IMG/VR virus record: IMGVR_UViG_3300017613_001587
Length of the DNA stretch: 64,000 bases
Reading direction: 5' to 3' (one strand)
From: a virus
Taxonomy: Duplodnaviria; Heunggongvirae; Uroviricota; Caudoviricetes
Shown: positions 25,195 to 63,250 of the stretch, in pieces
Layout of the letters: every line of letters starts with the position of its first letter
How positions within the stretch are numbered: position 1 is the first letter of the stretch
Made by a program: the position numbers and the translations under genes
Notes under the pieces: model-generated
Seen by the model: only the letters and a program-made list of their open reading frames with translations
What the model was told of the DNA's origin: nothing
Databases searched by the model: none

Positions 25195-25279
25195 GGGGTG
25201 TGTGCTTTGCCCGCCACACAACATATGTCAACATTTTAACTTATTCGAATAACTTAAACTTTAACAGGAGACTAATATC

Positions 25280-34698: not shown

Positions 34699-34879
34699 TG
34701 GAACATGGACAACCGTGCTTTGTGGTAAGTGCGACCTAGCACACAAGGTGTTATCAAAACATATCAAACCCCAGTCAAACTGTCCCTACTGCGACGAGTT
34801 TATTCATCTTACCAAATTGGAGGATGACCACGCCGCGGAGAAGAAAGAAGGCTGGAAAGACTGCGCGGAGGTGTCATAA
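34655..34879 (+). CDS. zinc-ribbon protein
   Basis: CGKC..CPYC. Confidence 0.4.
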   Translation: MSPKGDSMSRIVMNDGTWTTVLCGKCDLAHKVLSKHIKPQSNCPYCDEFIHLTKLEDDHAAEKKEGWKDCAEVS

Positions 34880-36216
34880 TGATCGGAACTTACCCACGCA
34901 AAGCCAAGTACACCAAGAAGACTAAGGACTTGCTGAAACTGGACAGCGAGTATATCTCTCCTTCATACACCCGTGACTATCCGTTTATTGTTGCCCATGC
35001 TCGTGATAGAGAGGTAAGAGATATAGATTATAATTTATATCTTGATTTCGGTGCTGGTATCGCTGTTACCTCTACCGGCCACTGTCACCCTGATGTCGTG
35101 CATGCTGTCAAAGAGCAAGCTAATAACTTTCTTCATATGTCTGGCACCGATTTCTTTTACGAGAATCAGATCAAACTGGCCGAGAAGCTCCAAAAGTATT
35201 GTTCTCAAAAGATGCCGGTATTCTATGGCAACTCTGGAGCTGAGGCAGTGGAAGCTGCCATGAAGATAGCCAGATTTCATACCCAGAAGCCTGGGTTTAT
35301 TGCTTTCACCGGCGCCTTCCATGGCCGCACCATGGGCGCCCTCTCCCTGACTGCCAGCAAGGCAGTACAGAGATCACGTTATCTGCCCTTACAGCCGGTA
35401 GCACATGTCCCTTACCCTAATTGTTATGACTGCCCCCTCGGTACCAACTCCCAACGCTGCGATAGTCATGGCAGCGTATGTGTAGACTACATCGACAGTG
35501 AAGTCCTCGGCAGAGGAGCCATGCCTGCATCTGATTGTGCAGCCCTGGTTATGGAACCTATACAGGGAGAGGGCGGTTATATCGTACCGCCACCTTTTTG
35601 GTTCAATGATATCCAAGCGCTTGCTGACTCACATGACCTACTAATTATCTGTGATGAGGTACAGGCAGGTGTTGGTCGTACTGGTGAGTTTTGGGCCCAT
35701 CAGAATTTCACTGGAACTGATGGCGACATCTTCATCCCTGACATTATCTGCTCGGCTAAGGGTATAGCCTCAGGCATGCCTCTTGGCGTCATGATGGCCA
35801 GGGTAGACTTGATGTATGGCTGGAAGCCTGGCTCACATGCCTCAACGTTCGGCGGCAATCCTGTATCCTGTGCAGCTGCCCTTGCTACTATCGATGTAAT
35901 CGAGAAAGAGGGATTGATGGACAATGCTGCTGTCATGGGCGCACACCTGGGTACAATGTTAGACTTAATGTATAAGGCCTGCGGCGTAACAGATAACCCC
36001 CGAGGTATGGGGCTTATGCGTGCTATTGACGTTCTGGGAGAGAACAAAAAGGGTACTTACAGAGACCAGGTTCTGATGAGATGTTTCGAAAAAGGGCTGA
36101 TCCTGCTTGGTTGTGGTAAAAGCGGTATCAGATTTTGCCCTGCACTTAATGTCACCACGGAGGAGGTGGACACCTGTGTACGCATACTCGAGGATACAAT
36201 TAACGAGATCATTTGA
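34879..36216 (+). CDS. class-III PLP-dependent aminotransferase (ArgD/GabT family)
   Basis: GSGAEAVE..LICDEVQAGVGRTG..SAKGIASGMPLG are the class-III aminotransferase motifs. Confidence 0.8.
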   Translation: MIGTYPRKAKYTKKTKDLLKLDSEYISPSYTRDYPFIVAHARDREVRDIDYNLYLDFGAGIAVTSTGHCHPDVVHAVKEQANNFLHMSGTDFFYENQIKLAEKLQKYCSQKMPVFYGNSGAEAVEAAMKIARFHTQKPGFIAFTGAFHGRTMGALSLTASKAVQRSRYLPLQPVAHVPYPNCYDCPLGTNSQRCDSHGSVCVDYIDSEVLGRGAMPASDCAALVMEPIQGEGGYIVPPPFWFNDIQALADSHDLLIICDEVQAGVGRTGEFWAHQNFTGTDGDIFIPDIICSAKGIASGMPLGVMMARVDLMYGWKPGSHASTFGGNPVSCAAALATIDVIEKEGLMDNAAVMGAHLGTMLDLMYKACGVTDNPRGMGLMRAIDVLGENKKGTYRDQVLMRCFEKGLILLGCGKSGIRFCPALNVTTEEVDTCVRILEDTINEII

Positions 36217-37619: not shown

Positions 37620-38099
37620 ATGACTATCCTAAATATTCTTACCGTTGGTAATGACGGCGGTGTACTGTCCACTGAAACAGTAGACCTCACGAAAGCTGAC
37701 ATTCTTTCCTCGAAAATTCAGACGTTGATTGAGGATATGAAAGACACCTGTCATCACGTCGGCGGTGTCGGTTTAGCTGCAAACCAGGTAGGTGAGACTG
37801 CTAAGTTGTTTGTATACAAAGATCCCGCACCCTTCGGCGGATTCAAAACAATTATCAATCCGGTAATTCTTGCCGGAAGGAAAGGTAAGTTTAAGAGCAA
37901 AGGTGAGGGCTGCCTGAGTTTACCTGGCAGGCGCTTCACAGTGGTAAGACAAAAACAGCTGTGGGTCAATGGCCTCGACGAGAAAGGCGAGGAGATAGAA
38001 TTCATGACCAAAAGCAAACAACTCGCCAAGATCATCCAGCACGAAGTTGACCATCTATATGGTAGAACTATAGCTGACAAGGGCAAGGAGGTTACCTAA
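37620..38099 (+). CDS. def: peptide deformylase
   Basis: All three PDF motifs are present: GVGLAANQVG, EGCLSLPG and QHEVDHLYG. Confidence 0.85.
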   Translation: MTILNILTVGNDGGVLSTETVDLTKADILSSKIQTLIEDMKDTCHHVGGVGLAANQVGETAKLFVYKDPAPFGGFKTIINPVILAGRKGKFKSKGEGCLSLPGRRFTVVRQKQLWVNGLDEKGEEIEFMTKSKQLAKIIQHEVDHLYGRTIADKGKEVT

Positions 38100-38668
38100 T
38101 GGCAACCGATCTATTTGTATTAGCAGGGTTTTCTATAACTATGGGTTTGATACTGACCGTTATGGGTCTGTCCTTCTTGAGCCAGAATCTGAAATCCCTA
38201 GAGTTCACGGATCAATGGGGAGCCAACACCACTAACCAATACTACAAGAATCCTTTCTACACGCTGAACTCCAAGTATTGGCACTACCGACCGAAGGGAG
38301 CGGTGGTGGTCACCAAAAAACAATGGGAAGACATAGAAAAGAACATAGGGATCAAGGTCACCGAGGCTAAGAAGCGCGGCCTAAAGCTAGGTAGGAAGTC
38401 CCTAATGATTGATATAGAGGACGCGATAAAAGAAAAGCAGGCCACAACATTCCCTACCAGCCCCTATGCAGTACTACAGGTAGAGTCCAGCGCCCCTATG
38501 GATGAGATCAGACAAAGATATGAATTCCTTAAAGGTATCTATGACCCGCGTAATTTTGTGGAATTGGATAAAACCTTTATCGAATTGGCTGATATTCGCT
38601 GTAAACAGCTCGACAAAGCCTGGAAAAGCATTAACTACGGTTTAACCAGTAGCAAGGGTGATATTTAA
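38099..38668 (+). CDS. membrane-anchored hypothetical protein
   Basis: ATGG overlap; N-terminal transmembrane helix. Confidence 0.45.
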   Translation: MATDLFVLAGFSITMGLILTVMGLSFLSQNLKSLEFTDQWGANTTNQYYKNPFYTLNSKYWHYRPKGAVVVTKKQWEDIEKNIGIKVTEAKKRGLKLGRKSLMIDIEDAIKEKQATTFPTSPYAVLQVESSAPMDEIRQRYEFLKGIYDPRNFVELDKTFIELADIRCKQLDKAWKSINYGLTSSKGDI

Positions 38669-39120
38669 TGCATGACGGTTATATCTCAAATCCCAGGCCA
38701 TTATGGAACGACGATGATGAGGAGACCCGTGCCCGACGTATTATGACACTAGGTAGTATTACTGGTGGTATAGTAGTAAAGGTAACAAAGAAAGGTGTCT
38801 TCTTCAACGGTTACTATGCTGGCCTACGTGAACCCAAGAAGTATGCGAACGTAAGAGAGTTCGTCTTCATGTCTTGGGATGACTTTGATAAGATGAGAGA
38901 GTCTGTTTTCCGTCGAAGACCTGTAAAGAAAAAGGTGGTAGAGCGGGAACCCGACGCTATCGATGCCAAGCCAGACAAGAAGTATCTGGCTTCCCTGCCC
39001 CAGGTCACCTTAAACGATAAAAAGTATTATATAGATATGGATAGGCAAGAGCGCCGTCCTGTCGATAACCCAGATCAGGTCTACAACTTCGAGCAACAAG
39101 CTGCTAAGATTCCTTCTTGA
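38668..39120 (+). CDS. hypothetical protein
   Basis: ATGC overlap with the upstream stop. Confidence 0.45.
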   Translation: MHDGYISNPRPLWNDDDEETRARRIMTLGSITGGIVVKVTKKGVFFNGYYAGLREPKKYANVREFVFMSWDDFDKMRESVFRRRPVKKKVVEREPDAIDAKPDKKYLASLPQVTLNDKKYYIDMDRQERRPVDNPDQVYNFEQQAAKIPS

Positions 39121-39135: not shown

Positions 39136-39393
39136 GTGATTACTTTGTATGAATATGCCCAGACTGATTGCGGATTCATAGAGACTGGGAAACAGGAATA
39201 TGAGTACTCCTGCCCCCATTGCTACAAGGCTATAAGATGGATAAAGGGCGAGCAGCTTTCACCAGCCAACTGTCTTGGTTGCTTCGAGCAACTGATGGAT
39301 ATCAGCAGAATAGCAGCTAACGCGGATTGGCGAATACAGTATCATTTTTCGGGAGAGGTGGCAGTTATATGCGAGTCTTCAGTGCACGGATAG
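39136..39393 (+). CDS. zinc-ribbon paralog 1 of 5 (GTG start; C-terminal RIQYHF)
   Basis: CPHC..C..C. Confidence 0.4.
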   Translation: MITLYEYAQTDCGFIETGKQEYEYSCPHCYKAIRWIKGEQLSPANCLGCFEQLMDISRIAANADWRIQYHFSGEVAVICESSVHG

Positions 39394-39584
39394 AGGGAAG
39401 CTGGGCACCTCCTATAAAGGTACAATGTCCTTCCTGCAATAGGAATATTACCTTCTATACCAATCTCAATGGAAACAAATGCAAATTCTGCTGGGAAGTA
39501 TTACCTTTCCCCGCCCGAATGGCAAAAGATATTAAATTAAGGGTAGAATACCATGTTCAGACTGAAGCAGAAGAAAGTACCTAA
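39369..39584 (+). CDS. zinc-ribbon paralog 2 (C-terminal RVEYHV)
   Basis: CPSC..CKFC. Confidence 0.4.
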   Translation: MRVFSARIEGSWAPPIKVQCPSCNRNITFYTNLNGNKCKFCWEVLPFPARMAKDIKLRVEYHVQTEAEEST

Positions 39585-39750
39585 ATTGATGTACATATTA
39601 TGTAGTTGTGGTAAGGAGACCAGTTTCTCTGGAACAGCGTGTCCTATAGTGTGTCATCATTGTAGTGCAATACTTCCAGATGCTTTGGAAATTCACCGGT
39701 GCGTAAAAGAAAGATCTACATATCACCGAGATAAGGAGATATACGATTGA
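39553..39750 (+). CDS. zinc-ribbon paralog 3 (C-terminal STYHR)
   Basis: CSCG..CHHC. Confidence 0.4.
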   Translation: MFRLKQKKVPKLMYILCSCGKETSFSGTACPIVCHHCSAILPDALEIHRCVKERSTYHRDKEIYD

Positions 39751-40025
39751 TTACTGTCATCCAGAAGGAAAGATGGCAACTTGGTCCCTGGTGTTTAGCA
39801 TGTATTCAACAATCTGGCCCGGCTGACTTAATGATATGTAAGTTATGCATGGGCTACGTAGCTACTTACTGGAAATGTCCTAGCTGCCATAGGATAGACC
39901 ACTACTATGCTCATGATGAGCCAGCCGCCTGTGCTTGTGGCTTCGTCCTGCCTAGTGTGGAAGATCTCAAACACGAAAAATCAGCCAGGGTAATGTACCA
40001 AACAGCTAAGGAACTGTATGATTAA
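39747..40025 (+). CDS. zinc-ribbon paralog 4 (C-terminal RVMYQT)
   Basis: CKLC..CPSC. Confidence 0.4.
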   Translation: MITVIQKERWQLGPWCLACIQQSGPADLMICKLCMGYVATYWKCPSCHRIDHYYAHDEPAACACGFVLPSVEDLKHEKSARVMYQTAKELYD

Positions 40026-40090
40026 AGTTACTGAAGACGGGATAGAGCAAGACGAACCGATAGAGCTCTCCCAGGAAGACTTGGATTTCA

Positions 40091-40432
40091 TTGGCGAAAT
40101 GTTCGATGACTTCGCCGACCATCAAAAACATCCATTGGATCGGCCAGATAGGGAGTGGAATGCTTAGCCTACAGAGACAAGATCTACATCTGAGATCGCC
40201 GAGATGCCACGATTTTTGTAAGAACTATCGTGTAGAAGGGTGTCTCAACGATTGTAATATGCGCTTCCGTGGTATATATGAGTGTCCACACTGTTCTACT
40301 ACAGGCTGCTATTACGGGAATAATAATCCCCTCTGCTGTCCAATGTGTAAAAGACCTTTACCAGATTATTGGAAACTCGAGCGCAGTAGTGATCCCTCAG
40401 CTCGTATTACTTACCACTTAAACGACAACTGA
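40091..40432 (+). CDS. zinc-ribbon paralog 5 (C-terminal RITYHL)
   Basis: CPHC..CPMC. Confidence 0.4.
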   Translation: MAKCSMTSPTIKNIHWIGQIGSGMLSLQRQDLHLRSPRCHDFCKNYRVEGCLNDCNMRFRGIYECPHCSTTGCYYGNNNPLCCPMCKRPLPDYWKLERSSDPSARITYHLNDN

Positions 40433-40445: not shown

Positions 40446-41210
40446 ATGCTTTCATTTCAATTTGCAAACTATGGATGGGGTACGTCAGCCAGTAAAGAGT
40501 TCAAATGGGTTTATACCCATCCAGATCCCAAAAATCCTGGTAAACTCGTAAACAGCAGTAAGAGTAACACCTGCCGGGAATATTTCGTCAAGAATCTCCG
40601 TTATCATATCAACCAGGGCGATGGCTTCATTCCTGAAGGCCGCCGTGCATATGCACTGGTCTCTTTTGGTATGCCGCGGAATGCATTATTCGAAGCCTGG
40701 CAAGATGCATTGAATAAAGCCGCAGAGAAGAGTATTTACATCATAAACTCTTACGAGAAGCATCATAAATGGCAGCGTACCCGGCTTTACCCGGTTAAAA
40801 CCGCTGGCGCTCCCATGGTGTTCTTTAATGGCCCAAAACGATGGACTATGTCCCCTTACCTGATGTCTATGTGGACACTTATGATTCGTATGGGGCGTAA
40901 TTCATGGTTGCCTAAGAAGCTCCTGAAAATGGGCCACGAGGAGATGGTGAAGTATATCACGAAAGCAGCTGACAATAGGGGCGGCGATGGGTATCAAGTT
41001 GCAAGATCTATACACGAATGGGACAACTTCATGGCTCTGTACAAAAAGTTGTTCGGTAACAATAATCGCAAATATCACTGGCAAGTAAGTCATCTCAATG
41101 GAAGGTCCGATAGACCTGAGGGCATCCAGAAACTCATGGATGGCACCACTGGCTACACATCACTACACAATAAGTACTATAAACTGAAAAAGGAGGCTGG
41201 TTTTAAATGA
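40446..41210 (+). CDS. hypothetical protein (254 aa)
   Basis: ORF track. Confidence 0.45.
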   Translation: MLSFQFANYGWGTSASKEFKWVYTHPDPKNPGKLVNSSKSNTCREYFVKNLRYHINQGDGFIPEGRRAYALVSFGMPRNALFEAWQDALNKAAEKSIYIINSYEKHHKWQRTRLYPVKTAGAPMVFFNGPKRWTMSPYLMSMWTLMIRMGRNSWLPKKLLKMGHEEMVKYITKAADNRGGDGYQVARSIHEWDNFMALYKKLFGNNNRKYHWQVSHLNGRSDRPEGIQKLMDGTTGYTSLHNKYYKLKKEAGFK

Positions 41211-41803
41211 AGTCACAAAAGAAGAAAAAATACACCCCGGAAGAAAGGGCGGCGATGTTCGAGCCGACTTACGTATTCGGTTATGGATCGTTGCTACTGG
41301 CTCATGGCATTAATGGACGTGGAATGAAGAAGAAGTACAAAGACTCCGATCTGATACCTTGCACCCTTAACGGATTTGCAAGGTCAATGTGTGGATTCTT
41401 TGGCGGTCGGAACTTCTACGGCCTGCTGGAAAATAAAAAGGCCAGTTGTAATGGTGTCATATTCAAGATTCACGACTGGTATGACTACCGCTCGTTTCTA
41501 TACAGCGAAGGTGCCACTTCCGGCTACCGCCAGCATCGGACCTACTGGCCTATTCGCGTGACCACAAAGATCACCGGCTGTAAGAAGCCCACAGGCCATC
41601 GCGTCATGACACTGCTCTGTAAGGAAGATAAGGCCAACGTGGGCAGAGTCGAGAAAAGCTACATACATCTCTGTCATGAAGGCGCCAAACTCTGGGGCGC
41701 GGAATTCGAACAAACTTTTCTGCAGACCGGCGGTATCCCTTACGCCAAGAAGGGTAAGGAGATGAAGGCAATCGCCAAGGAGCATAACATTAAAACGTGG
41801 TAG
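41207..41803 (+). CDS. gamma-glutamyl cyclotransferase-like (GGCT/AIG2 fold) protein
   Basis: YVFGYGSLL..NGFAR..NGVIFKI..SEGATSGYRQ follows the GGCT YxxGSNL..GY.R..G.vy.I..EG..Y.R pattern. Confidence 0.5.
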   Translation: MKSQKKKKYTPEERAAMFEPTYVFGYGSLLLAHGINGRGMKKKYKDSDLIPCTLNGFARSMCGFFGGRNFYGLLENKKASCNGVIFKIHDWYDYRSFLYSEGATSGYRQHRTYWPIRVTTKITGCKKPTGHRVMTLLCKEDKANVGRVEKSYIHLCHEGAKLWGAEFEQTFLQTGGIPYAKKGKEMKAIAKEHNIKTW

Positions 41804-41812
41804 GAGGCCACC

Positions 41813-41986
41813 ATGGAAAGAACAGTCCAAGACCACATGTTAAGAGCCGCCGAGGAGGAAGTTTCCAAGGGAGTATGTCCTGAATATTGGCGGTTAGCGG
41901 GCGAAAGAGAGACCAGTCGGGAGGCTGATCTTGCTGAGGCCCTCACTCTACACGATTTCCCGTGTCAGAGCTATTTCCAGGCGTAA
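41813..41986 (+). CDS. small hypothetical protein (57 aa)
   Basis: GTAGGAGGCCACC-ATG. Confidence 0.35.
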   Translation: MERTVQDHMLRAAEEEVSKGVCPEYWRLAGERETSREADLAEALTLHDFPCQSYFQA

Positions 41987-42025
41987 TGGGCGCATAGTAC
42001 CCTAAATATAAGGAGGCCGTATAAT

Positions 42026-42910
42026 ATGGCAATTAGATCAAAAGTAGGACTCGAGGCGGAGTTCTTACTCATCAACGCTAAGGGTGAGATTATCATTCCG
42101 CCGTCGTCATGGGACCGTGATGGCTTCCCTCTACTCGGAGAAATCCGGGGTAAAGAGGGTGAAACCGTCGCCGAAACAGTAACCAACTTCCGCGCCAAAG
42201 AGATGGAGATCATCGAGGATATGCGTAGAGGACATTCCATGCGGATGTCTGATCTCGAGATGATCAAACTCGCTTTGTACAAGAAGGCCAATAAGGAAGT
42301 CAACTGGGCTGAGAAAGAAGCCGACATGGGTAAGATCAGGAACATCCATGGCGTAGATATTGAAGGGTTCTCAGATCAAGTTGTTAAAGGCAACAAGATC
42401 CAGGGTATTCGGATCAGCTGCGGCCTTCACATTCATTTCTCCTGCAGTGAGGACATTGACTATGATTATGAGCAGGAGCAGTATGAGCAGGTTATACTGC
42501 CGATCGGTATGGGTGATACCGGTATCTTCGTGGCCCAGCACAATGACATGGACACGCACGAAGAGCTGCCTTTGTCCCCACAGCAACTACTGGCTAAAGA
42601 GCTGCTCAGCCCGACTCTGTACTTGTACCGCCGTAAAGGGTATAAGAAGGAGAAGAACTTCAAGCTCAACGCCAGCCGCCTTAACAAGCCCGCTATTGAG
42701 TTCATCGTAGCCGCGCTTGATAAGGAGTTCTTCGAAAGATTTGCTCCACCGAAGGCGGATCGAACCAAATATCGCCAACCCGGATTCTTCGAACTCAAAC
42801 CGTATGGTTTTGAATATCGCAGTCTCCCGGCCAATGCTCAGGTTATGGAAGCTTTACCGGAGATCACCAGAAAGGCATTCGACCTGATCGAGGAGATCAA
42901 TGAGTACTAG
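42026..42910 (+). CDS. GCS2/YbdK-family carboxylate-amine ligase (gamma-glutamyl-cysteine-ligase-like amidoligase)
   Basis: N-terminal VGLEAEFLLIN plus GLHIHFS, which are characteristic GCS2 blocks. Confidence 0.55.
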   Translation: MAIRSKVGLEAEFLLINAKGEIIIPPSSWDRDGFPLLGEIRGKEGETVAETVTNFRAKEMEIIEDMRRGHSMRMSDLEMIKLALYKKANKEVNWAEKEADMGKIRNIHGVDIEGFSDQVVKGNKIQGIRISCGLHIHFSCSEDIDYDYEQEQYEQVILPIGMGDTGIFVAQHNDMDTHEELPLSPQQLLAKELLSPTLYLYRRKGYKKEKNFKLNASRLNKPAIEFIVAALDKEFFERFAPPKADRTKYRQPGFFELKPYGFEYRSLPANAQVMEALPEITRKAFDLIEEINEY

Positions 42911-45305: not shown

Positions 45306-45393
45306 GCCCCCGTAGCTCAGTGGAAGGCTAACGCCGCAGAGCATAGGACTTCTAATCCTTGTGCCGCAGGTTCGAATCCTGCCGGGGGTACCA
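45306..45393 (+). tRNA. tRNA-Arg(TCT)-like with a 10-nt insertion (mini-hairpin GGCTAACGCC) in the D-loop; CCA is encoded
   Basis: The cloverleaf was built by hand. The acceptor GCCCCCG/CGGGGGT and T-arm GCAGG-TTCGAAT-CCTGC are identical to the next tRNA. The anticodon loop is CTTCTAA. The D-loop is 20 nt. Confidence 0.55.
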
Positions 45394-45406
45394 CTTTCTA
45401 AAGTAT

Positions 45407-45484
45407 GCCCCCGTAGCTCAGTGGATACAGAGCGCTCGGCTACGAACCGAGAGGTCGCAGGTTCGAATCCTGCCGGGGGTACCA
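45407..45484 (+). tRNA. tRNA-Arg(ACG)
   Basis: Canonical 78-nt cloverleaf with D-stem GCTC/GAGC, anticodon loop CTACGAA and T-loop TTCGAAT; ACCA at the 3' end. Confidence 0.8.
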
Positions 45485-45501
45485 CAAAGGAGGGACCACA
45501 G

Positions 45502-45960
45502 GTGTATTGCAAATTACAAAGTGCTGATCACTCATTCAGAGTAATGCCTGACGGCGGTGAAAAGGTACATGCTGCCAGAAAAAGTCATAACAGTTTCATA
45601 ACTGCCTGTGGACATTATGGCGATATGTATTGGATAAAGCTTCGCAGGACGGCCGAAATAACCTGCAAAACTTGCCAACGGGCGCTCGCCTTCGAGACCA
45701 AACCACAAGACGATAAACGGTATGTTATATACGATACGACTACCAAGCTGTATTTTCTTCGCCGAGACGGCGCCGGTTTGTGGATTGAGGAAGCTTTCGG
45801 CGCCAGTCGTTGGCGCAACTACGATACTGCTGAGGCTACCAGAGGAGAAATCCTAAGTCATAGAGCATGGGGCTCTAAACTGACAGTACCCGACTATATC
45901 GATAAGTACGGAGGTAACCTGGTAGTTAAAAAGGCCAAAATCATCATCGAAATATTATAA
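45502..45960 (+). CDS. hypothetical protein (GTG start downstream of the tRNAs)
   Basis: AGGAGGGACCACAG-GTG. The N-terminal part of the track ORF at 45361 is the tRNA sequence, not protein. Confidence 0.45.
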   Translation: MYCKLQSADHSFRVMPDGGEKVHAARKSHNSFITACGHYGDMYWIKLRRTAEITCKTCQRALAFETKPQDDKRYVIYDTTTKLYFLRRDGAGLWIEEAFGASRWRNYDTAEATRGEILSHRAWGSKLTVPDYIDKYGGNLVVKKAKIIIEIL

Positions 45961-48387: not shown

Positions 48388-48570
48388 ATGTCGAAAGGAA
48401 TTCAAGCAAAAACTAAACTTCTTAGACAAGTAGAGGAAAGCATTGAAATATGCGAGAACTACCGTGGTACAAAGCCGGACTACTACATAGACCATTGGCA
48501 AGACAAACATATTCTACTACTTGCTCTAAAGAAGACACTAACAGGAGGTAAACCACCATGCAATACCTGA
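48388..48570 (+). CDS. hypothetical protein
   Basis: TAAGGAGGTAAACCACT-ATG. Confidence 0.4.
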   Translation: MSKGIQAKTKLLRQVEESIEICENYRGTKPDYYIDHWQDKHILLLALKKTLTGGKPPCNT

Positions 48571-49322
48571 AAGACTATTTTAAAGACTGGAACTTGTGGG
48601 ATTGGAGCTGGGTTGTCATAGCTTCATTTGTTGGAACCTGGTTAGGACTCAAGTGGGGTGATCCCACTAACCCATGGTACACAGCACTCAGCATTGGTAC
48701 TATGCTGACCGGCCTCTGGTGTGTCATTCTCGTGGCCAAAGGACGTATCTTCAACTATTACCTGGGTGTACTCAACGTGCTTGGATACGCCTACATCGCC
48801 TATGGATATCAGCTCTACGGCGAAGTGCAGCTTAACCTACTGTACTATCTCCCGATGCAGTTCGTAGGGCTATATATCTGGATGAAGAACAAAGACGTTA
48901 GCATACCTGATAAGATCAGAGTAAAGTTCTTGAATAATGGCAACCGATTCTTCGTGGCAGTTGCTTCTGCAACAGCTGTTGTAGGCTACGGTAACTGGTT
49001 GGGGTATCTAGGTGATCCTTTACCTTTTCTGGATGCTACCTCTACTATGCTCTCCATCATCGCCATGATCCTGATGGCCTGGAGATACATGGAGCAGTGG
49101 ATACTGTGGATAGTAGTAGATATAGTATCAGTATGGATGTGGTGGCTTACCATAGATGCTCATGGTAATAGAGATATTACTATGTTAGTCATGTGGATCG
49201 CTTTCCTCATCAATGCTGTCTACGGTTTCATCATGTGGGTCAAGATGTATCAAGAGCAGTGTGCTTTGGATGCTCTGGATGGTGCTCTACAACCTGATTG
49301 GACAAACCGCCATGGCAACTAA
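48558..49322 (+). CDS. pnuC: PnuC-family nicotinamide riboside transporter
   Basis: A 7-8 transmembrane-helix protein with Trp/Tyr-rich motifs (W..W..NPW...; WILWIVVDIVSVWMWW) characteristic of PnuC. Confidence 0.65.
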   Translation: MQYLKDYFKDWNLWDWSWVVIASFVGTWLGLKWGDPTNPWYTALSIGTMLTGLWCVILVAKGRIFNYYLGVLNVLGYAYIAYGYQLYGEVQLNLLYYLPMQFVGLYIWMKNKDVSIPDKIRVKFLNNGNRFFVAVASATAVVGYGNWLGYLGDPLPFLDATSTMLSIIAMILMAWRYMEQWILWIVVDIVSVWMWWLTIDAHGNRDITMLVMWIAFLINAVYGFIMWVKMYQEQCALDALDGALQPDWTNRHGN

Positions 49323-49470
49323 GGATACATTAAAACTAATGGTGCTCCCCAAGGCGGGAGTACCATTTGGTGAGTGGGAGTTCGTCTGGGTCACTAAGGA
49401 CGAGCTCAAAACCTATCAACAACGTGGATACAAACGCGCCAGAAAGGTGAAAGAGAGAGATTATGCTTAA
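49312..49470 (+). CDS. small hypothetical protein
   Basis: Internal ATG overlapping the end of pnuC; weak ribosome-binding site. Confidence 0.25.
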   Translation: MATKDTLKLMVLPKAGVPFGEWEFVWVTKDELKTYQQRGYKRARKVKERDYA

Positions 49471-49843
49471 CTTAGGGCAGGTAGTCTACGATCTAACCAA
49501 TAAAAGGGTTCTGATCTTTGGTGGCATATCAATGCTCCAGAATCAAGAATCAGGTAAATGTCATACCGAAATCAACTTCTTGACGGAAGATCTTGAGCAG
49601 TTGAACTACGGTAAAGACAACCCGACTCCTTTTAAGTATAGGAACTTCGCTGTCGTCGACGGTAAGATCCCATGTGGTGATTTTATGACGGCAGCCGAAC
49701 TCACAGGGCATTTCTTTGGTAATGTAAACTTTGATCTGGCCCTTCAGATAACCGAGAACGTCGAGGCCGTCAAGAGGACCTTCGAGATGGCCAAAGCATT
49801 AACCCCGCCAGAACCGATAGAGGAGGTAGATAGTAATGGCTGA
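49463..49843 (+). CDS. hypothetical protein
   Basis: ORF track. Confidence 0.45.
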   Translation: MLNLGQVVYDLTNKRVLIFGGISMLQNQESGKCHTEINFLTEDLEQLNYGKDNPTPFKYRNFAVVDGKIPCGDFMTAAELTGHFFGNVNFDLALQITENVEAVKRTFEMAKALTPPEPIEEVDSNG

Positions 49844-50018
49844 AAGAGCATGTGGTACATGTAAGGCTGATGAAACATGGTGCTGGATGTTTGTATATAA
49901 CGAGGATGAAAAGAAGTGTCCGTGTGCACATTGTGATAAGAACGACGACTGTGAAGACGTCTTTGGCGACGACGATGCTGAAGGGTGTGCGAAATTCGCA
50001 GCCGCATGGGAGGATTAA
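49836..50018 (+). CDS. small Cys-rich acidic protein
   Basis: ATGG overlap with the upstream stop. Confidence 0.4.
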   Translation: MAERACGTCKADETWCWMFVYNEDEKKCPCAHCDKNDDCEDVFGDDDAEGCAKFAAAWED

Positions 50019-50019
50019 T

Positions 50020-50328
50020 ATGCACCCAGGACTGATAAGGTTAATAGCCTTAGGGACAGTATTCGGCGGTTGGGCAGCCACTGTTGTAGGTGGTTATCTG
50101 CGCGGCCTCAAGCAAACAGAGGGAGGATCTAAAGTGATCACAAGAACGATGTATCATGAGACTAAGGAAGGGGTACATGTACTTGAGTTCCCCGAACTTG
50201 AAACCATTAACCTGGCCGATCCTGAAATTCAAGCACACGCTATCAAGTGGGGGCTGGCTGTTGGTATACCCGGCGGTGAGATTCTCTTCAAAAAGGATGC
50301 TCGCTTCGTCGCAACGGGAGGTAAGTGA
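50020..50328 (+). CDS. membrane-anchored hypothetical protein
   Basis: GGGAGGATTAAT-ATG. Confidence 0.4.
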   Translation: MHPGLIRLIALGTVFGGWAATVVGGYLRGLKQTEGGSKVITRTMYHETKEGVHVLEFPELETINLADPEIQAHAIKWGLAVGIPGGEILFKKDARFVATGGK

Positions 50329-50567
50329 TGAACAAACTGATATCTGGAAAGCTTTTAGTCATCGCCTTAGCAGGCGTCCGGCGCATCGCTGAGAAAGAAG
50401 GCCATGATTTCATGGAACTGGTCGCTAGATCCACCAATAACAAGATGACCCTCGAGGCTATCGAGGAGGCCATCGATGCCTTTGAGGAAACCGGCGGCGA
50501 GGACAACCCCGAAAAGTTCCTTGAATACTTGGAGAAAAACTCCAGTAAGGGAGGAGGATTATCATGA
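50325..50567 (+). CDS. hypothetical protein
   Basis: ATGA overlap with the upstream stop. Confidence 0.4.
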   Translation: MMNKLISGKLLVIALAGVRRIAEKEGHDFMELVARSTNNKMTLEAIEEAIDAFEETGGEDNPEKFLEYLEKNSSKGGGLS

Positions 50568-50755
50568 CGCTCGTTATTATCGCTCTTATGTGTGTTAGTG
50601 TTTTCTGTTTTTACGCAGGCCGTAAATCCGGCGAAACCTCGGGATATTGGAAAGGCCGCGGTACAGGCTGGAAAGACTGTGAGGACATGGTCATTAAACG
50701 CATGGTCGAACACGGCTATGACAAAGAGAAGGTCTGGGAGGATTTAATTCAATGA
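50564..50755 (+). CDS. small membrane protein
   Basis: ATGA overlap with the upstream stop. Confidence 0.4.
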   Translation: MTLVIIALMCVSVFCFYAGRKSGETSGYWKGRGTGWKDCEDMVIKRMVEHGYDKEKVWEDLIQ

Positions 50756-50973
50756 AGAAGACCGGATTCAACGATTATGATAAACAGCGGGAGATCCTCA
50801 AGCGAGTTGAGCTGGAAGAGTATAGATTACGCTGCATTGCAGTTAACATCTGCCCCTGGTGTGGTGAGGATCTTAAGGATATAGAGGCTCTCAGTTCACA
50901 TTTTTGTACGCTGTCCTGCCCCACCAAAAACTGCGAAGGTGCTGAGAGGATAAGAAAGTCTAACCGAGGTTAG
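50752..50973 (+). CDS. zinc-ribbon protein
   Basis: CPWCG..C..C. Confidence 0.4.
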   Translation: MKKTGFNDYDKQREILKRVELEEYRLRCIAVNICPWCGEDLKDIEALSSHFCTLSCPTKNCEGAERIRKSNRG

Positions 50974-50983
50974 GAGGTAAACC

Positions 50984-52060
50984 ATGTACAATATTGGAGT
51001 TGTACCCGGCAAGTTTTTTCCACCACATAGAGGACACCTCAATCAGATCATTCGTGCGGCCACACAATGTAAAAAAGTATATGTAGTGGTATCTGATAAT
51101 GAGGACTTGGCATTGGACAAGTGCCGTAAGGACAACCTACCATTCATTCCTATCAAAACCCGAGCACTCTGGCTATCACTGGAGCTTCAGGGCATAGACC
51201 ACATCGAAGTATTGATGCTGGACGAGACCGGTATTCCTGCCTATCCTGATGGTAGTGTACAATGGTGTCAGATGCTCAGAACACTAATCGCCAACACAAT
51301 ACCTGGCGCCAGTAAGATAGATGTCATATTTGGCGGAGAAACTGAATACCAGGATACATATATGAAGCATATGCCTGGTACCGAGTATGATGTTTATGAC
51401 TACAAGCGTAGCCGTTATCCTGTCAGTGGTACTGAAGTACGTCTGGACTATCTTAAACACTGGGACTATATTCTTGGATCTGCCAGGGGATTCTTTGCCC
51501 GGCGGATACTCGTCACTGGTACTGAAAGCTGTGCCAAAAGCACGCTGGTTAAGTATTTAGCCAAGATCTTCCATACGTCCTGGTCAGAAGAGTACGGTAG
51601 GTACTATTCAGCAGATTATCTGGGAGGAAACGAGGATCTGTTTCAATTAGATGATTTCACACGTGTTGCCCGCATACAAGAGGCTCAGGATGAAGAGGCT
51701 CTGAAGAGTGCTAACCGGATCTGTTTCTTTGATTCCGATGCGGTGGTCACTCAATACTACTGCCATCTCTATACTGGCAGCCAGAACCCTCTGATTGAGA
51801 CGCACGTCAATCCTCAGAAGTACGATCTGGTCCTTATGATGGGCCCAACAGTTGGCTGGGTAGCGGATGGACTTCGCTTCAAGGGTGAGCAGGCGGATAG
51901 GGAGAGGCTGCATAAGAAACTGTTGTATATGTATCTTGACCGCGGCTTCAAGGATAAAATCATCGAGATCAACGATGACAACTATTCTGCTCGTTTAGCC
52001 AGAGCTACTGATTATGCTGATAAACTGGTGGCTGATCGTAAGTACATGAGCCGCTACTGA
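50984..52060 (+). CDS. nadR: NadR-like bifunctional NMN adenylyltransferase / ribosylnicotinamide kinase (no HTH domain)
   Basis: N-terminal GKFFPPHRGH (the nucleotidyltransferase HxGH motif) and C-terminal VTGTESCAKSTL P-loop, as in NadR. Confidence 0.7.
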   Translation: MYNIGVVPGKFFPPHRGHLNQIIRAATQCKKVYVVVSDNEDLALDKCRKDNLPFIPIKTRALWLSLELQGIDHIEVLMLDETGIPAYPDGSVQWCQMLRTLIANTIPGASKIDVIFGGETEYQDTYMKHMPGTEYDVYDYKRSRYPVSGTEVRLDYLKHWDYILGSARGFFARRILVTGTESCAKSTLVKYLAKIFHTSWSEEYGRYYSADYLGGNEDLFQLDDFTRVARIQEAQDEEALKSANRICFFDSDAVVTQYYCHLYTGSQNPLIETHVNPQKYDLVLMMGPTVGWVADGLRFKGEQADRERLHKKLLYMYLDRGFKDKIIEINDDNYSARLARATDYADKLVADRKYMSRY

Positions 52061-52069
52061 GGAGGAACA

Positions 52070-52273
52070 ATGGCAAATAATGAACCGCTATTAGAATCCA
52101 TAACGCACGGTCTTATGAACAATAAGGCCCCATTCGTATACACTGAGGCTGCTGCTCAACCAACTGATCCGCAGAGAAAGAAGATCGGTGTGGCGGCCTT
52201 TCAACTGACTGGTATATGTGTCTATCTGTATGAAGACGGTACCTGGGAGTGGCAAGACACAACTGGAGGATAG
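52070..52273 (+). CDS. hypothetical protein
   Basis: TGAGGAGGAACA-ATG. Confidence 0.4.
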   Translation: MANNEPLLESITHGLMNNKAPFVYTEAAAQPTDPQRKKIGVAAFQLTGICVYLYEDGTWEWQDTTGG

Positions 52274-52274
52274 T

Positions 52275-52535
52275 ATGAAGAAGTTAATTGCTGTATTGTT
52301 AATCCTATTGGTGCTGGCTGCAACACCAGCAGCTGCAAAAGTCTATCTTGTGGTAGCAACACTGGCTAACACCGGTGTCTCATCGTTTACCTTTGATTAT
52401 CATGAGGTAGAGGATATGGATCAGTGCCTGCGTATAGTAGATCGTGCTAAGATCAGTGTAGCGCAGGGCGGAGATGCCGAAGCGTCCATTGCAATTTACT
52501 GTGCGCCGGATAAAAGGGAGAAAGATCTTGACTGA
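52275..52535 (+). CDS. secreted protein with a signal peptide
   Basis: MKKLIAVLLILLVLAATPAAA. Confidence 0.4.
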   Translation: MKKLIAVLLILLVLAATPAAAKVYLVVATLANTGVSSFTFDYHEVEDMDQCLRIVDRAKISVAQGGDAEASIAIYCAPDKREKDLD

Positions 52536-52962
52536 ATATAAACTTGATGAGACGCCGTACCTGACGATAGATGCCATCATTGAGTACAATCGCAAGCTCA
52601 TCATTATCGAGCGTATGCATGACCCTCTGGGCTTAGCCTGGGTAGGTGGCTTCGTCGACCCAGGTGAAACCTGCAAACAGGCAGTGATCAGAGAGTGCGG
52701 TGAGGAAGTCAACCTTAAGGTAGATGTGATTGACCTTATAGGTATCTATGATGATCCTGAACGTGACCCACGAGGTCACCTGGTATCTATTGCTTATCTG
52801 TGCAAGGCTGTGGCGGGCACTCCGCGGCCTCAGGATGCAGAGGTTAAGAAGATTCATCAGGTCTCATTGGATGAAGCCTTGAAACTACATATGATAGCTG
52901 ACCATAGCCAGATGTTACTGGATGCTCTGGAACTGGCCGTGTTCGACAGGAGGCGGATATGA
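52528..52962 (+). CDS. Nudix hydrolase (ADP-ribose pyrophosphatase-like)
   Basis: Nudix box GGFVDPGETCKQAVIRECGEEVNL (GX5EX7REUXEEXGU). The start is uncertain: TTG at 52528 after AAGGGAG, or ATG at 52474. Confidence 0.7.
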   Translation: MTEYKLDETPYLTIDAIIEYNRKLIIIERMHDPLGLAWVGGFVDPGETCKQAVIRECGEEVNLKVDVIDLIGIYDDPERDPRGHLVSIAYLCKAVAGTPRPQDAEVKKIHQVSLDEALKLHMIADHSQMLLDALELAVFDRRRI

Positions 52963-53303
52963 CGGACGAAGAGAAAGAACTGGTTATTGAGAAGCTGCTG
53001 GAGTCCACTGAGATCAGAAAGATCTACGATACTTACATCATCAAAAGTATCCCGTTTGAGACCTGGGTCCGCGACACAACTGATCGTCTCTTAGCCCCAG
53101 CGCCAAACGTCGTGATAGATGCGGATGAAGTATTAGCCAAGGTAATGGGGGATAATAATGATGAAGGTTTTGCTATGATATACGGCACTTGTAAATACTG
53201 TGGTGAAACCGTAGACGACGATAACCTGGCCGAATTGGCCACCGAAGACATGGGTTTGATGTGCGAGCCCTGTTTCAATGAGAAGGAGGTGGGATCATCG
53301 TGA
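52959..53303 (+). CDS. hypothetical acidic protein
   Basis: ATGA overlap with the upstream stop. Confidence 0.45.
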   Translation: MTDEEKELVIEKLLESTEIRKIYDTYIIKSIPFETWVRDTTDRLLAPAPNVVIDADEVLAKVMGDNNDEGFAMIYGTCKYCGETVDDDNLAELATEDMGLMCEPCFNEKEVGSS

Positions 53304-53554
53304 GAGCACCAAACGCTAAACCAGAGCGGAATCGTATGATGCTCAGGCTGGCCATGAGAGGTTACAACTGTAAACAAATATCAAGTGTTTATGGATGTTC
53401 CAGTGGTAATGTGTTTGTTATAGTACGCCGTGAAGGAAATAAAATACTCCAGCCGCTTCGAGATGCCGAGATGAGTGGTATCAAACACAATCTAACTGTA
53501 AGTGAGCTTCGTAAGTTCAGAAACTATATCTTAGGGGAGTTACTCGATGATTAA
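53300..53554 (+). CDS. HTH DNA-binding protein (LuxR / sigma-region-4-like)
   Basis: ERNRMMLRLAMRGYNCKQISSVYGCSSGNVFVIVRR. Confidence 0.4.
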   Translation: MRAPNAKPERNRMMLRLAMRGYNCKQISSVYGCSSGNVFVIVRREGNKILQPLRDAEMSGIKHNLTVSELRKFRNYILGELLDD

Positions 53555-53987
53555 ACTTGGACTCGACCTACACGGCGTGATTGATGCTGCACCTAAGTTC
53601 TTTTCCACTATGGCAGGTCAGATGATAGACCGGGGACATGAGATCTATATTATTACTGGCCGTGAGGACTGTGAGGAGCTGAGGAGAGAGCTTAACGCAT
53701 GCAACATGGACTATAATGGTATACTATCTATTACTACCTATCAAAAGGGTCAGGGCGTTCCTATATCGTACCTTGATGGGCGGCTATCTCAGCCGATGAT
53801 GGACCCACAAATATGGAACCCGACAAAGGCTATGCTGTGCGCCACGGCGGGTATCGACATTATGATCGATGATTCCTCATTATATGAACCCTTCTTCAGG
53901 GACATTAAGACACAGTACATCGTTTATTCCGCTACCGTTATGGAGTGGCTAAACTTTATGTTTTATTGTGGAGGAACACAATTATGA
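53547..53987 (+). CDS. HAD-like hydrolase with an atypical motif I (DLHGV in place of DxDGx)
   Basis: LGLDLHGVID..IITG..MIDDS. Confidence 0.35.
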   Translation: MIKLGLDLHGVIDAAPKFFSTMAGQMIDRGHEIYIITGREDCEELRRELNACNMDYNGILSITTYQKGQGVPISYLDGRLSQPMMDPQIWNPTKAMLCATAGIDIMIDDSSLYEPFFRDIKTQYIVYSATVMEWLNFMFYCGGTQL

Positions 53988-54532: not shown

Positions 54533-54546
54533 GGAGGCTACAGACC

Positions 54547-62445: not shown

Positions 62446-63222
62446 ATGTTCCAAAAGACTGTATTTGAACTTAACGACGGTTCTAGTGCGCCGGATTATA
62501 GTGGTTTCAACTTTGGCGCTGCTCAGGAACCTAAAGACGGGAAGATTAAGTTGGTATCAGGAACTCATACTTGCCGCGAAGGGTTGTTCCATAACATGCG
62601 CAGCCGTATTAATCAGAGTACGGATAATCAACCCACTGATAGGATGCGTATGATCTTCCGGTGGTATGCTGGCCAAGCCAACCGCGCTTCTGAAATAGCG
62701 AGGAGCGAGGAGTGGGCTCTGAGATCTGTATCTGTACTGCGTGCTTTTGACCAGTGTGCAGGTTGGCCACTCACTCGAGTCTACAAACTGGATGTAGGCA
62801 GCAATAGTGCCTGGCTCGGTGCATATTATTACTGGAGCTCCAGGCGTTGGATGAAGGCCTCGTATCTGGTGTCCCTGTATGTTCTCCTGGTGCGTATGTG
62901 TAAAGATGAACGTATCACCGGTTTCAAGAATATGGATGATCTGGTCAAGCTGATGGCGAAGATTCAGAAATCCGGCACTAACCTGAAGAACGACCATAAC
63001 TACGTCATGACTTCCGTGCCCTACTGGAAAGCCATTATGAAGGGTTATCCCAAATTGTTTCGCAAGCGTAAAATGCCTTATTACTGGGATACCAGCAGAA
63101 TCGGCGGCGGTTCCGGCGGCTCAGAAGGCATCCAATATTTGTGCAACGGCGACACCTCATACACTGAAGTGCGGGAGGAGCTGTTGAAAATCAAGGCGGA
63201 CCTCGATAAGAAAAAGAAATAG
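62446..63222 (+). CDS. hypothetical protein (258 aa)
   Basis: TTAGGAGGAAAGTTCC-ATG. Confidence 0.45.
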   Translation: MFQKTVFELNDGSSAPDYSGFNFGAAQEPKDGKIKLVSGTHTCREGLFHNMRSRINQSTDNQPTDRMRMIFRWYAGQANRASEIARSEEWALRSVSVLRAFDQCAGWPLTRVYKLDVGSNSAWLGAYYYWSSRRWMKASYLVSLYVLLVRMCKDERITGFKNMDDLVKLMAKIQKSGTNLKNDHNYVMTSVPYWKAIMKGYPKLFRKRKMPYYWDTSRIGGGSGGSEGIQYLCNGDTSYTEVREELLKIKADLDKKKK

Positions 63223-63250
63223 GTCCATAACTCCAAGGAGGTACCATATC

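Follow-up and report, generated by a model that had tools for sequence, protein, structure and literature searches.

The window, by which we mean the whole 64-kb stretch of phage DNA that was analysed, presents a module region of four predicted ORFs, all on the + strand and positioned as a first-pass annotation of this DNA had proposed (Table 1). Each of the four genes is preceded by a Shine-Dalgarno site, which for the 57-aa ORF consists of AGGAGG located 6 nt before the ATG. The stop codon of the 254-aa gene and the start codon of the GGCT-like gene overlap as ATGA, and the same 4-nt overlap was found at two related loci (L006 and L023). The GGCT-like and ligase genes are separated by ~220 nt. 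A scan of the region for promoters and terminators returned counts no higher than those obtained in shuffles.

Table 1. Coordinates of the module genes and of associated features in the window.
Feature	Coordinates	Strand	Remarks
254-aa gene, family A4	40446..41210	+	GS/GCL-like predicted fold
GGCT-like gene, 198 aa	41207..41803	+	ChaC/GGACT-like gamma-glutamyl cyclotransferase candidate
57-aa ORF	41813..41986	+	Strong Shine-Dalgarno site
Ligase gene, 294 aa, family A1	42026..42910	+	Predicted GS/GCL-fold carboxylate-amine ligase
Second A4 paralogue, 258 aa	62446..63222	+	A4 HMM E=3e-74
Partner ORF of second A4 paralogue, 233 aa	63251-63952		Conserved pair with 62446..63222
Five tandem paralogous zinc-ribbon mini-protein ORFs	39136..40432	+	Directly 5' of the trio (254-aa, GGCT-like and ligase genes)
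Class-III aminotransferase	34879-36216		Pfam Aminotran_3, E=1.9e-103

The 57-aa ORF matched no family of Pfam, PHROGs, NCBIfam or PADLOC. It shares only an 18-residue C-terminal match with a 40-aa ORF of L006, and the corresponding gap of L008 and L023 contains no ORF. It may be a fourth member of the module, although this membership is uncertain because of its poor conservation. Alignment of the five mini-proteins revealed a shared CPxC...CxxC...RxxYH pattern. Using an HMM, we detected zinc-ribbon arrays of 4-8 copies 5' of ligase or A4 genes in L002/L025, L026, L006/L022, L113 and L114, and no array in L001, L030, L039 or L043; such arrays adjoin a YcaO gene twice. Synteny between the array and the module extends to several phages, and a functional tie of the two is only a candidate one.

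The ligase and its relatives

The first-pass annotation had described the 294-aa product as a GCS2-like carboxylate-amine ligase, based on two motifs that are indeed present: VGLEAEFLL (residues 7-15) and GLHIHFS (residues 133-139). Across 40 homologues, the residues G8, E10, E12, E39, R41, H135, H137, E263 and R265 were found to be invariant, and the catalytic residues are all among those conserved. The motifs quoted for this protein and for the GGCT-like protein do not represent chance matches, since key residues in them are invariant across the alignments of homologues. The structure model presents a confident glutamine-synthetase/GCL (GS/GCL) fold, with the exception of a low-confidence, variable insert of ~60 residues (roughly residues 160-200), and its barrel strands carry the acidic, His and Arg residues of the catalytic site. 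In structural alignment to GCS2/YbdK and gamma-glutamylcysteine ligases the window ligase is 9-16% identical, and searches of the PDB with the single sequence or with a 40-sequence profile returned no sequence match. On the strength of this model, we assign the 294-aa product to the ATP-dependent carboxylate-amine ligases with a GS/GCL fold.

The GCS2 identity itself was not recovered. We rejected membership of this family as no match to PF04107 was found in Pfam at E<=1. Proteins of the GCS2/YbdK family (PF04107; PDB 1tt4) and gamma-glutamylcysteine ligases are 354-729 aa long, compared to 294 aa here. The sole Pfam match was to PF14395, with a score of 11.7 bits (E=0.16) over residues 244-269 only, which falls short of the gathering score of 25 bits. 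When family A1 was compared to 12 PF14395-type proteins with hhalign, we obtained a probability of 95.8% (E=7.8e-9) over 205 columns with the catalytic motifs aligned, and one of 75.6% when it was compared to gp61 of Citrobacter phage CVT22 alone. The A1 HMM matches this same gp61 at E=1.8e-6, and the A1-like match of L020 is itself a PF14395 protein (59 bits). Both families are phage-restricted, and PF14395 (CVT22 gp61) resembles A1 in its GS/GCL fold, its acidic pair on strand 1, its Glu on strand 2, and its CG-H-x-H and E-Y-R motifs. In contrast, strand 1 reads E-A-E in the window ligase and D-P-E in PF14395, and the variable insert also sets the window ligase apart.

These profile comparisons identify A1 as a new family that is sister to the phiEco32-type COOH-NH2 ligases (PF14395). 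Since A1 and a true PF14395 gene share loci in distant phages, A1 is paralogous rather than orthologous to it. The fold, the invariant catalytic residues and the PF14395 homology together rescue the proposed ligase class, moving it from the GCS2 branch to the phiEco32-type branch. A prophage or cellular origin of the family was rejected, with 12 MAG contigs only, from unrelated phyla, and 0 isolate genomes. A ~950-aa ORF with a ligase-like C-terminus in L110 contained no Pfam domain and provided no clue to a fusion.

The GGCT-like protein and the A4 family

The 198-aa protein contains the motifs YVFGYGSLL (residues 22-30) and SEGATSGYRQHR (residues 99-110). All elements of the gamma-glutamyl cyclotransferase signature that had been quoted for this gene are present, although their order had been given incorrectly, as EG precedes GY.R. 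All 27 homologues retain F24-G25-Y26-G27-S28-L29 and E101. E101 lies 75 residues past Y26, a spacing that corresponds to those of human GGCT (Y22/E98) and GGACT (Y7/E82). ChaC (PF04752), GGACT/AIG2 (PF06094) and BtrG likewise present a YGSL-type motif followed by a Glu ~75 residues further on. The Pfam ChaC profile scored 19.7 bits against the 198-aa protein (E=9.7e-4), just under its cut-off of 21 bits. Below-threshold matches were observed for ChaC in 17 of the 27 family members (best E=9.7e-4) and for GGACT in four (best E 0.0072), and none of the 27 matched AIG2_2. The family had no match in NCBIfam. No window protein matched PF06094 or PF13772 in the Pfam search, so that the strict profile searches by which the first-pass annotation had asked to be judged came out negative for both the ligase and the GGCT-like protein. 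The GGCT identity nonetheless finds support in the invariant FGYGSL and E101 and in the sub-threshold ChaC and GGACT matches, and two of the 53 homologues that we found (P0157 and P0158), all of which are metagenomic, are named gamma-glutamylcyclotransferase by NCBI. We consider the 198-aa protein to be a candidate gamma-glutamyl cyclotransferase of the GGCT fold. The family also possesses a conserved Lys-rich N-terminal extension and a C-terminal EFLxTGG...W extension; to our knowledge, neither occurs in the reference GGCT-fold families.

The 254-aa gene had been listed as a mere unknown. It is indeed unannotated, but its place as a component coupled to the GGCT gene and adjoining the ligase had been overlooked. 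It belongs to a large unannotated family of 431 clusters, A4, whose alignment displays no conserved acidic/His set on the strands and no conserved nucleotide and metal site; Cys43-Arg44-Glu45 are invariant. The structure model of the 254-aa protein resembles the GS fold, and the protein has no sequence similarity to the ligase. A fold search of BFVD with this model yielded a single borderline match, to an uncharacterised protein. In distant phages, A4 genes adjoin GS-fold ligases of either family (A1 or PF14395). Of all components, the 254-aa gene has the tightest coupling to the GGCT gene, and it recurs beside GS-fold ligases; based on the model, its product is probably a partner that has no catalytic activity or a different one. 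The second A4 paralogue of the window is 28% identical to the 254-aa protein (blastp E=1e-20), and L008 possesses an orthologous pair (776-1534 and 1600-2295; 39% and 43% identity) for this paralogue and its 233-aa partner ORF. This paralogue is related to the module and lies outside the trio, and Pfam returned nothing informative for its neighbours.

PafA and Dop are structural neighbours of the ligase model and the top neighbours of the 254-aa model, and the module resembles PafA/Dop in that two GS-fold-type proteins are co-encoded. Together with the synteny of zinc-ribbon arrays with ligase/A4 genes in several distant phages, twice beside YcaO, this resemblance could point to a pupylation-like tagging system. 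The ligase would then join the carboxylate of a small protein to lysine, or modify the mini-proteins, with the 254-aa protein as a Dop-like counterpart or adaptor. However, PafA and Dop keep the nucleotide site for which the 254-aa protein has no conserved equivalent, and no Pup-like modifier ending in GGQ or GGE was found in the module, where the 57-aa ORF ends in SYFQA. We assign a low probability to this explanation. It is also improbable, in our estimation, that the A4 proteins are enzymes of a new class whose GS fold has been remodelled, which use the invariant Cys43-Arg44-Glu45 together with Glu104 and Arg148 and which build and edit amide-linked protein tags jointly with A1 and GGCT, the upstream tandem mini-proteins being candidate targets. 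Were this so, phages would have their own equivalent of pupylation or of RiPP-type tailoring, which would serve in taking over the host.

Neighbourhoods in related phages

The gene order 254-aa, GGCT, ligase is conserved in the window and in L006, L008, L023 and L024, as revealed by the analysis of related phages that the first-pass annotation had recommended. L008 retains the trio amid completely different flanking genes. In more distant phages, the ligase loci also contain further A4 copies, as well as a genuine PF14395 ligase gene and one for a Peptidase_C26 GATase. Among 99 non-redundant loci, GGCT was found in 9 and C26 in 15, and both were found together in none. All C26 loci of at least 8 kb (12/12) also carry a PF14395-type ligase, and the pair is likewise present in the cultured phage CVT22 (E=1.4e-53 and 1.4e-26). 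The exclusivity of GGCT and C26 tracks phylogeny and, therefore, does not constitute a set of independent events; the fact that they never occur together fits a chemistry in which a gamma-glutamyl group is attached and removed. The ligase is found with neither GGCT nor C26 within ~10 kb in 20 of the 37 non-redundant loci of at least 8 kb, which indicates that a gamma-glutamyl-removing partner is not obligatory.

This last count could also suggest that the genes have no joint function and are independent auxiliary genes kept as neighbours by inherited synteny in a small clade. The Group I loci indeed represent few independent genomes, and L113 presents the 254-aa/GGCT pair with no ligase in its 8.9-kb contig. 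Against such independence, the trio of L008 was kept while its surroundings were replaced, the 254-aa and GGCT genes overlap, and A4 recurs beside two different GS-fold ligase families in distant phages. We view an absence of joint function as quite unlikely.

No relative of the region (blastn) or of the three proteins (tblastn) was detected in 50,697 deposited phage genomes. Searches of the PDB gave noise only for the three families, whether run with single sequences or with profiles, and the module proteins had no match in PHROGs, NCBIfam or PADLOC. The A1 and A4 families appear to occur solely in uncultured phages, from metagenomes of sediments and aquatic habitats.

The class-III aminotransferase, whose identity was confirmed (Table 1), is located ~4.2 kb and roughly 14 ORFs upstream of the module. 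Its proposed membership in the same pathway did not hold: it accompanies the ligase in only 2 of the 37 non-redundant loci of at least 8 kb and L008, where the trio is kept, lacks it. We rejected it as a pathway member because its linkage is inconsistent. It had also been suggested that the genes serve DNA modification, in which case the ligase and GGCT would build or trim an amino-acid adduct on a modified base, with the aminotransferase providing the amine. Amidoligase and amidotransferase genes do co-associate with thymidine-hypermodification clusters on viral metagenomic contigs, and the hallmark gene set of these clusters has been defined (PMC8989533). Our inventory of the 122 ORFs of the window (Pfam E<=1e-4, PHROGs E<=1e-5), however, contained no 5-hmU DNA kinase, aGPT-Pplase, dUMP hydroxymethylase or TET/JBP. 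DNA hypermodification was rejected due to the absence of these hallmark genes from the 64-kb window, and together with the inconsistent aminotransferase this makes it the most improbable of the explanations considered.

A putative gamma-glutamyl attachment and removal module

We tentatively propose, at slightly less than an even chance, that the module is a co-transcribed enzyme trio in which the ligase adds a gamma-glutamyl-type amide, GGCT removes or processes it and the 254-aa protein assists. Like its relatives, the ligase would phosphorylate a carboxylate and hand it to an amine. The donor would most likely be glutamate through its gamma-carboxyl, as suggested by the partner enzymes only, or another omega-carboxyl of this kind. 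An amine-bearing acceptor would thereby receive a gamma-glutamyl-type amide; candidates for this acceptor are cell-wall peptides, proteins or mini-proteins, and metabolites. From a terminal gamma-glutamyl group whose alpha-amine is free, GGCT would form 5-oxoproline by cyclisation and so release the amine. This step may represent editing or turnover, or else deprotection or maturation; in butirosin biosynthesis, BtrG offers a precedent for the removal of a ligase-installed gamma-glutamyl protecting group. The 254-aa protein, translationally coupled to the GGCT gene, may be a GS-fold derivative devoid of an ATP/metal site and would probably act as a specificity, scaffold or substrate-presenting subunit. 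Since a C26 hydrolase-type GATase partners the ligase family in distant phages, GGCT may take the gamma-glutamyl-removing role here.

Similar logic is found in the Puu pathway of E. coli, where an amine is gamma-glutamylated, processed and then relieved of its gamma-glutamyl group by enzymes that include PuuA (a GS-like ligase), PuuD (a C26 gamma-glutamyl hydrolase) and PuuE (a class-III aminotransferase). These classes match the wider set of our loci (GS-fold ligase, C26 and class-III aminotransferase). Unlike Puu, the window has no C26, an inconsistently linked aminotransferase and no oxidase or aldehyde dehydrogenase among its 122 ORFs. Alternatively, a GCL-like ligase and a ChaC-type glutathione degrader might rewire the low-molecular-weight thiol and cysteine pool of the host. 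The ligase, however, groups by sequence with PF14395 and with no GCL family, and building and breaking one gamma-glutamyl bond would be futile. This scenario, which also leaves the 254-aa partner and the C26 and second-ligase context of the relatives unexplained, has little chance of being correct.

The closest known arrangement is the podovirus 'peptidoglycan modification cassette', composed of GGCT, GATase, a gamma-glutamyl amidoligase, a COOH-NH2 ligase and ATP-grasp, which is carried by phiEco32, 7-11, PA11, tf, LUZ24, PaP3, CW02, RIO-1 and PSA-HP1 (PMC5498523, PMC11945000). In both the cassette and the window, a GS-fold amidoligase and a gamma-glutamyl cyclotransferase are encoded in an early/metabolic region, and both systems are known as predictions. 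The window carries a COOH-NH2 ligase together with GGCT, the two being highly diverged, indeed too diverged for the cassette PHROGs. The 122 ORFs of the 64-kb window include no ATP-grasp, Amidoligase_2 (PF12224) or glutamine amidotransferase, and local C26 and COOH-NH2 HMMs found no match there. In addition, the window possesses the A4 family, for which no counterpart was found in the cassette-type phage CVT22, and its phage is a large, uncultured one (contig ~102-108 kb), in contrast to the 45-77 kb of the cassette podoviruses. As the module is a far-diverged variant of the predicted phage amidoligase cassette, the proposed chemistry is plausible.

For the related cassette, the literature's hypothesis is a change of the cell envelope: stem-peptide precursors of peptidoglycan would gain an amino acid through the ligase, which GGCT would trim, such that superinfecting phages are excluded. 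Applied to the window, this is a target-specific form of our preferred trio. The PF14395 ligases that phiEco32, LUZ24, PaP3, RIO-1 and PSA-HP1 carry in this cassette (PMC5498523, PMC11945000) are homologues of the window ligase, the cassette likewise includes GGCT and GATase, and in L114 a gene for an SLT lytic transglycosylase lies a few kb from the A4/ligase cluster. Yet the hypothesis is itself a prediction in the literature, the window lacks the ATP-grasp, Amidoligase_2 and GATase genes, and its GGCT and ligase match none of the PHROGs to which the cassette genes belong. Moreover, as the alpha-amine of peptidoglycan D-Glu is acylated, a cyclotransferase would be limited to an added terminal gamma-Glu. 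We regard this target as rather unlikely.

Since 2009, annotations of numerous genomes have listed phage amidoligase/GATase/GGCT cassettes, for which proposals range from cell-wall editing to DNA hypermodification; their primary prediction is reportedly that of Iyer et al. 2009. The module described here is a minimal version, whose putative parts are a single ligase, a single enzyme for gamma-glutamyl removal and a single accessory protein. This minimal composition and the swap of GGCT and C26 across clades narrow the likely chemistry to gamma-glutamyl attachment and removal, and the trio constitutes a small and tractable protein set for reconstitution. Two sizeable families, the sister ligases of PF14395 and A4, are undescribed in current databases. 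If A4 is catalytic or defines the substrate, it would represent a new component for a whole class of phage systems.

Catalytic signatures of the ligase and the GGCT-like protein

The window is phage DNA whose gene content includes SSB, a virion structural protein, a tail-fibre protein, RtcB and one tRNA-Arg. Nearly all of its long ORFs lie on the plus strand, and it has no DNA relatives among 50,697 deposited phage genomes. The first-pass annotation named four ORFs, of 254, 198, 57 and 294 aa; all are present at the coordinates given there, and the motifs quoted are real and conserved across 27 homologues of the 198-aa protein and 40 of the 294-aa protein. Each gene of the module is preceded by a Shine-Dalgarno site, and the stop codon of the 254-aa gene overlaps the start codon of the GGCT-like gene (ATGA). 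Promoter-like and terminator-like sites were not enriched relative to shuffled sequence, which suggests that the module genes share one long transcript.

The 294-aa protein had been proposed to be a GCS2 ligase. This holds for the enzyme class at the superfamily level; membership in GCS2 itself was rejected because Pfam returned no PF04107 match. Its sole Pfam match is PF14395 (COOH-NH2_lig, E=0.16), and searches against PHROGs, NCBIfam and PDB sequences yielded no match. The family comprises 231 homologues, all metagenomic and none with a Pfam domain, some of them on contigs longer than 300 kb. No isolate genome carries it, and the 12 MAG contigs that do belong to unrelated phyla, a distribution typical of mis-binned phage contigs. 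Across 40 homologues, positions G8, E10, E12, E39, R41, H135, H137, E263 and R265 are invariant, and VGLEAEF and SCGLHIHFS are part of this invariant set. An AlphaFold2 model built from the 40 sequences was confident (pLDDT 89.7) and predicted that the intact E-x-E, E-x-R, H-x-H and E-x-R motifs are all located on beta-strands. This is the order in which GCL and GS carry their residues for binding metal and phosphate, which in E. coli GshA are E27, E29, E67, H150, E328 and R330. The family profile aligned to 12 PF14395-type proteins from related loci with all motifs in register (95.8% probability, E=7.8e-9, 205 columns), and its HMM matched, at E=1.8e-6, gp61 of Citrobacter phage CVT22, which is annotated as a COOH.NH2 ligase. 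Very probably, the 294-aa protein works as an ATP-dependent amide ligase and represents a new sister family of PF14395. In one of the related loci (L110, 1945-4794), the C-terminus of an ORF of ~950 aa weakly matches the ligase family, and its N-terminal ~740 residues present no Pfam domain.

The GGCT assignment of the 198-aa protein likewise stands at the superfamily level, through its YGSL motif and glutamate, and fails at the profile level, where ChaC scored 19.7 bits for a cut-off of 21. ChaC was touched by 17 of the 27 family members and GGACT by four, all below threshold. The motif FGYGSL (24-29) and E101 are invariant in the 27 homologues; E101 lies 75 residues downstream of YGSL, the same spacing as in human GGCT and GGACT. 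Two homologues were named gamma-glutamylcyclotransferase by NCBI's pipeline. Judging from this signature, the protein would possess the GGCT fold and activity. With 53 homologues, its family is small and spans a much narrower range than that of the ligase.

GGCT and C26 are mutually exclusive across related loci

We fetched 114 related loci and searched their ORFs with an HMM of each family. In Group I, where ligases are at least 65% identical, the order 254-aa gene, GGCT, ligase is found in the window, L006, L008, L023 and L024, with a 4-nt overlap between the first two genes in the window, L006 and L023. The trio is kept in L008 even though the upstream 10 kb are entirely different (glycosyltransferase, deacetylase, OmpA). 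L113 presents an overlapping 254-aa/GGCT pair without a ligase on its 8.9-kb contig. In Group II (L001, L030, L039 and L043; ligase 45-52% identical), two to three 254-aa-family paralogues follow the ligase, and after them come a bona fide PF14395 ligase (33 bits) and, last, a Peptidase_C26 GATase. In Group III (ligase ~30% identical), the PF14395 ligase and C26 pair is located a few kb from the ligase. Cultured phage CVT22 carries this same pair (E=1.4e-53 and 1.4e-26).

GGCT was found in 9 of the 99 non-redundant loci, C26 in 15 and both in none; the locus groups track phylogeny, and these counts do not represent independent events. In 20 of the 37 loci that span 8 kb or more, neither gene accompanies the ligase. 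All GGCT loci in this size range also contain a member of the 254-aa family. The family recurs next to GS-fold ligases as well, and in L114 three paralogues lie directly upstream of a PF14395 ligase.

The 254-aa gene, passed over as unknown in the first-pass annotation, proved to be the most informative of the module. A word-indexed search returned 11 homologues, and an exhaustive HMMER search returned 431 cluster representatives (E<=1e-3). None of 70 diverse members matched a Pfam family, and at the sequence level hhalign detected no resemblance to the two ligase families (0.1% and 2.3%). Only C43, R44, W133 and G226 are invariant, with E45, E104, W109, S141, L145, R148 and L230 conserved in at least 90%; the strand-borne acidic and histidine set of GS-fold ligases is absent. 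In a weak, non-significant alignment to PF14395 proteins, the motif FFxGSxRWxxSPY falls on the ligase strand EYRxxSNxWLxSP with Glu and Arg replaced, a suggestive correspondence. We read the protein as a derivative of the GS fold that lacks the active site of the ligases. It may act as a non-catalytic partner, or its site may have been remodelled.

Genomic surroundings of the module

The aminotransferase is a genuine class-III enzyme, best matching the acetylornithine aminotransferase family of NCBIfam (517 bits vs a cut-off of 552). The proposal that it belongs to the module's pathway is unsupported: it lies ~4.2 kb upstream, with ~14 ORFs between (peptide deformylase, the DnaJ-like protein and five zinc-ribbon ORFs among others), accompanies the module in 2 of 37 non-redundant loci (the window and the L006 lineage) and is absent from L008.

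Zinc-ribbon arrays of 4-8 copies also occur upstream of ligase or 254-aa-family genes in L002/L025, L026, L006/L022, L113 and L114. A YcaO-family gene adjoins them in two distant phages (L002, 486-1793; L114, 541-1689), which hints at peptide tailoring of these mini-proteins; the window contains no YcaO. The Pfam inventory of the window further includes a YpsA SLOG domain, DUF488-N3a, an RNase-H-like RVT_3, a methyltransferase, two pilin-like N_methyl motif proteins and one isochorismatase-family ORF.

Coordinates of the module and of other features of the window
Feature	Position	Remarks
Opposite-strand ORFs, 318 aa (+) and 305 aa (-)	25241-26236	Almost complete overlap; no Pfam match for the + product
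Class-III aminotransferase	34879-36216	
Peptide deformylase, then 189-aa protein with faint DnaJ match	37620-38668	Block with next ORF syntenic in L006/L022; parts recurring in L025, L026
150-aa ORF	38668-39120	
Five tandem paralogous zinc-ribbon ORFs, 65-113 aa	39136-40432	CPxC...CxxC...RxxYH; two with E[IL]YD ending
254-aa gene	40446-41210	
GGCT-like gene	41207-41803	
Ligase gene	42026-42910	
Stand-alone Nlig-Ia protein, 165 aa	43609-44106	Only the N-terminal Ia (NAD+-binding) domain of NAD-dependent DNA ligase (Pfam E=2.9e-14); conserved beside module in L005
199-aa GTG-start ORF	45361-45960	True start probably downstream of tRNA-Arg
tRNA-Arg (ACG)	45407-45484	Inside 5' part of 199-aa ORF
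NAD salvage (Preiss-Handler) set	48558-56653	Near-complete
PnuC NMN transporter	48558-49322	
NadR-like NMN adenylyltransferase/AAA_28	50984-52060	
NUDIX	52474-52962	
NAPRTase	54547-55749	
NAD synthase	55733-56653	
RtcB-family RNA ligase	57190-58290	One of two in window (Pfam RtcB, 2/122 ORFs); split RtcB also in L001
258-aa paralogue of 254-aa family and 233-aa protein	62446-63952	Conserved pair, also in L008/L101; no family match for 233-aa protein

Relation to known amidoligase cassettes

Podoviruses carry a cluster of GGCT, GATase, a gamma-glutamyl amidoligase, a second amidoligase (COOH-NH2 ligase) and an ATP-grasp enzyme, which was named a putative peptidoglycan modification cassette that could block superinfection (PMC5498523 section 16; PMC11945000). 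It is found in phiEco32, 7-11, PA11, tf, MR299-2, LUZ24, PaP3, CW02, RIO-1 and PSA-HP1, and both sources cite Iyer et al. 2009 and Hardies et al. 2013 (PMC5498523; PMC11945000). Secondary-metabolite synthesis is another role mentioned (PMC10580990), and co-association with thymidine-hypermodification clusters has been reported (PMC8989533). We found no experimental test of the cassette in the literature searched. The module shares two enzyme classes with this cassette, whereas the window lacks its ATP-grasp, Amidoligase_2 and GATase genes; the module is too diverged to match the PHROG families that annotate the cassette, and the 254-aa family is an addition of the window without counterpart in CVT22.

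We propose that the ligase would form a gamma-glutamyl-type amide on an amine acceptor and that the GGCT-like enzyme would take off the terminal gamma-glutamyl group as 5-oxoproline, in a deprotection or maturation step or an editing step. C26 may be the hydrolytic equivalent of GGCT in other clades, and the 254-aa protein may act as a specificity or scaffold subunit. Alternatively, the genes might act on the cell wall, on glutathione, in protein tagging or in DNA modification, or have no joint function; hallmarks of DNA hypermodification are absent within the 64-kb window. An amidoligase and GGCT pair in a phage is a known, prediction-only system that will not astonish the specialist. What is new is a module built from two protein families described in no database, whose minimal architecture, GGCT/C26 swap and new accessory family make a 15-year-old question more tractable.
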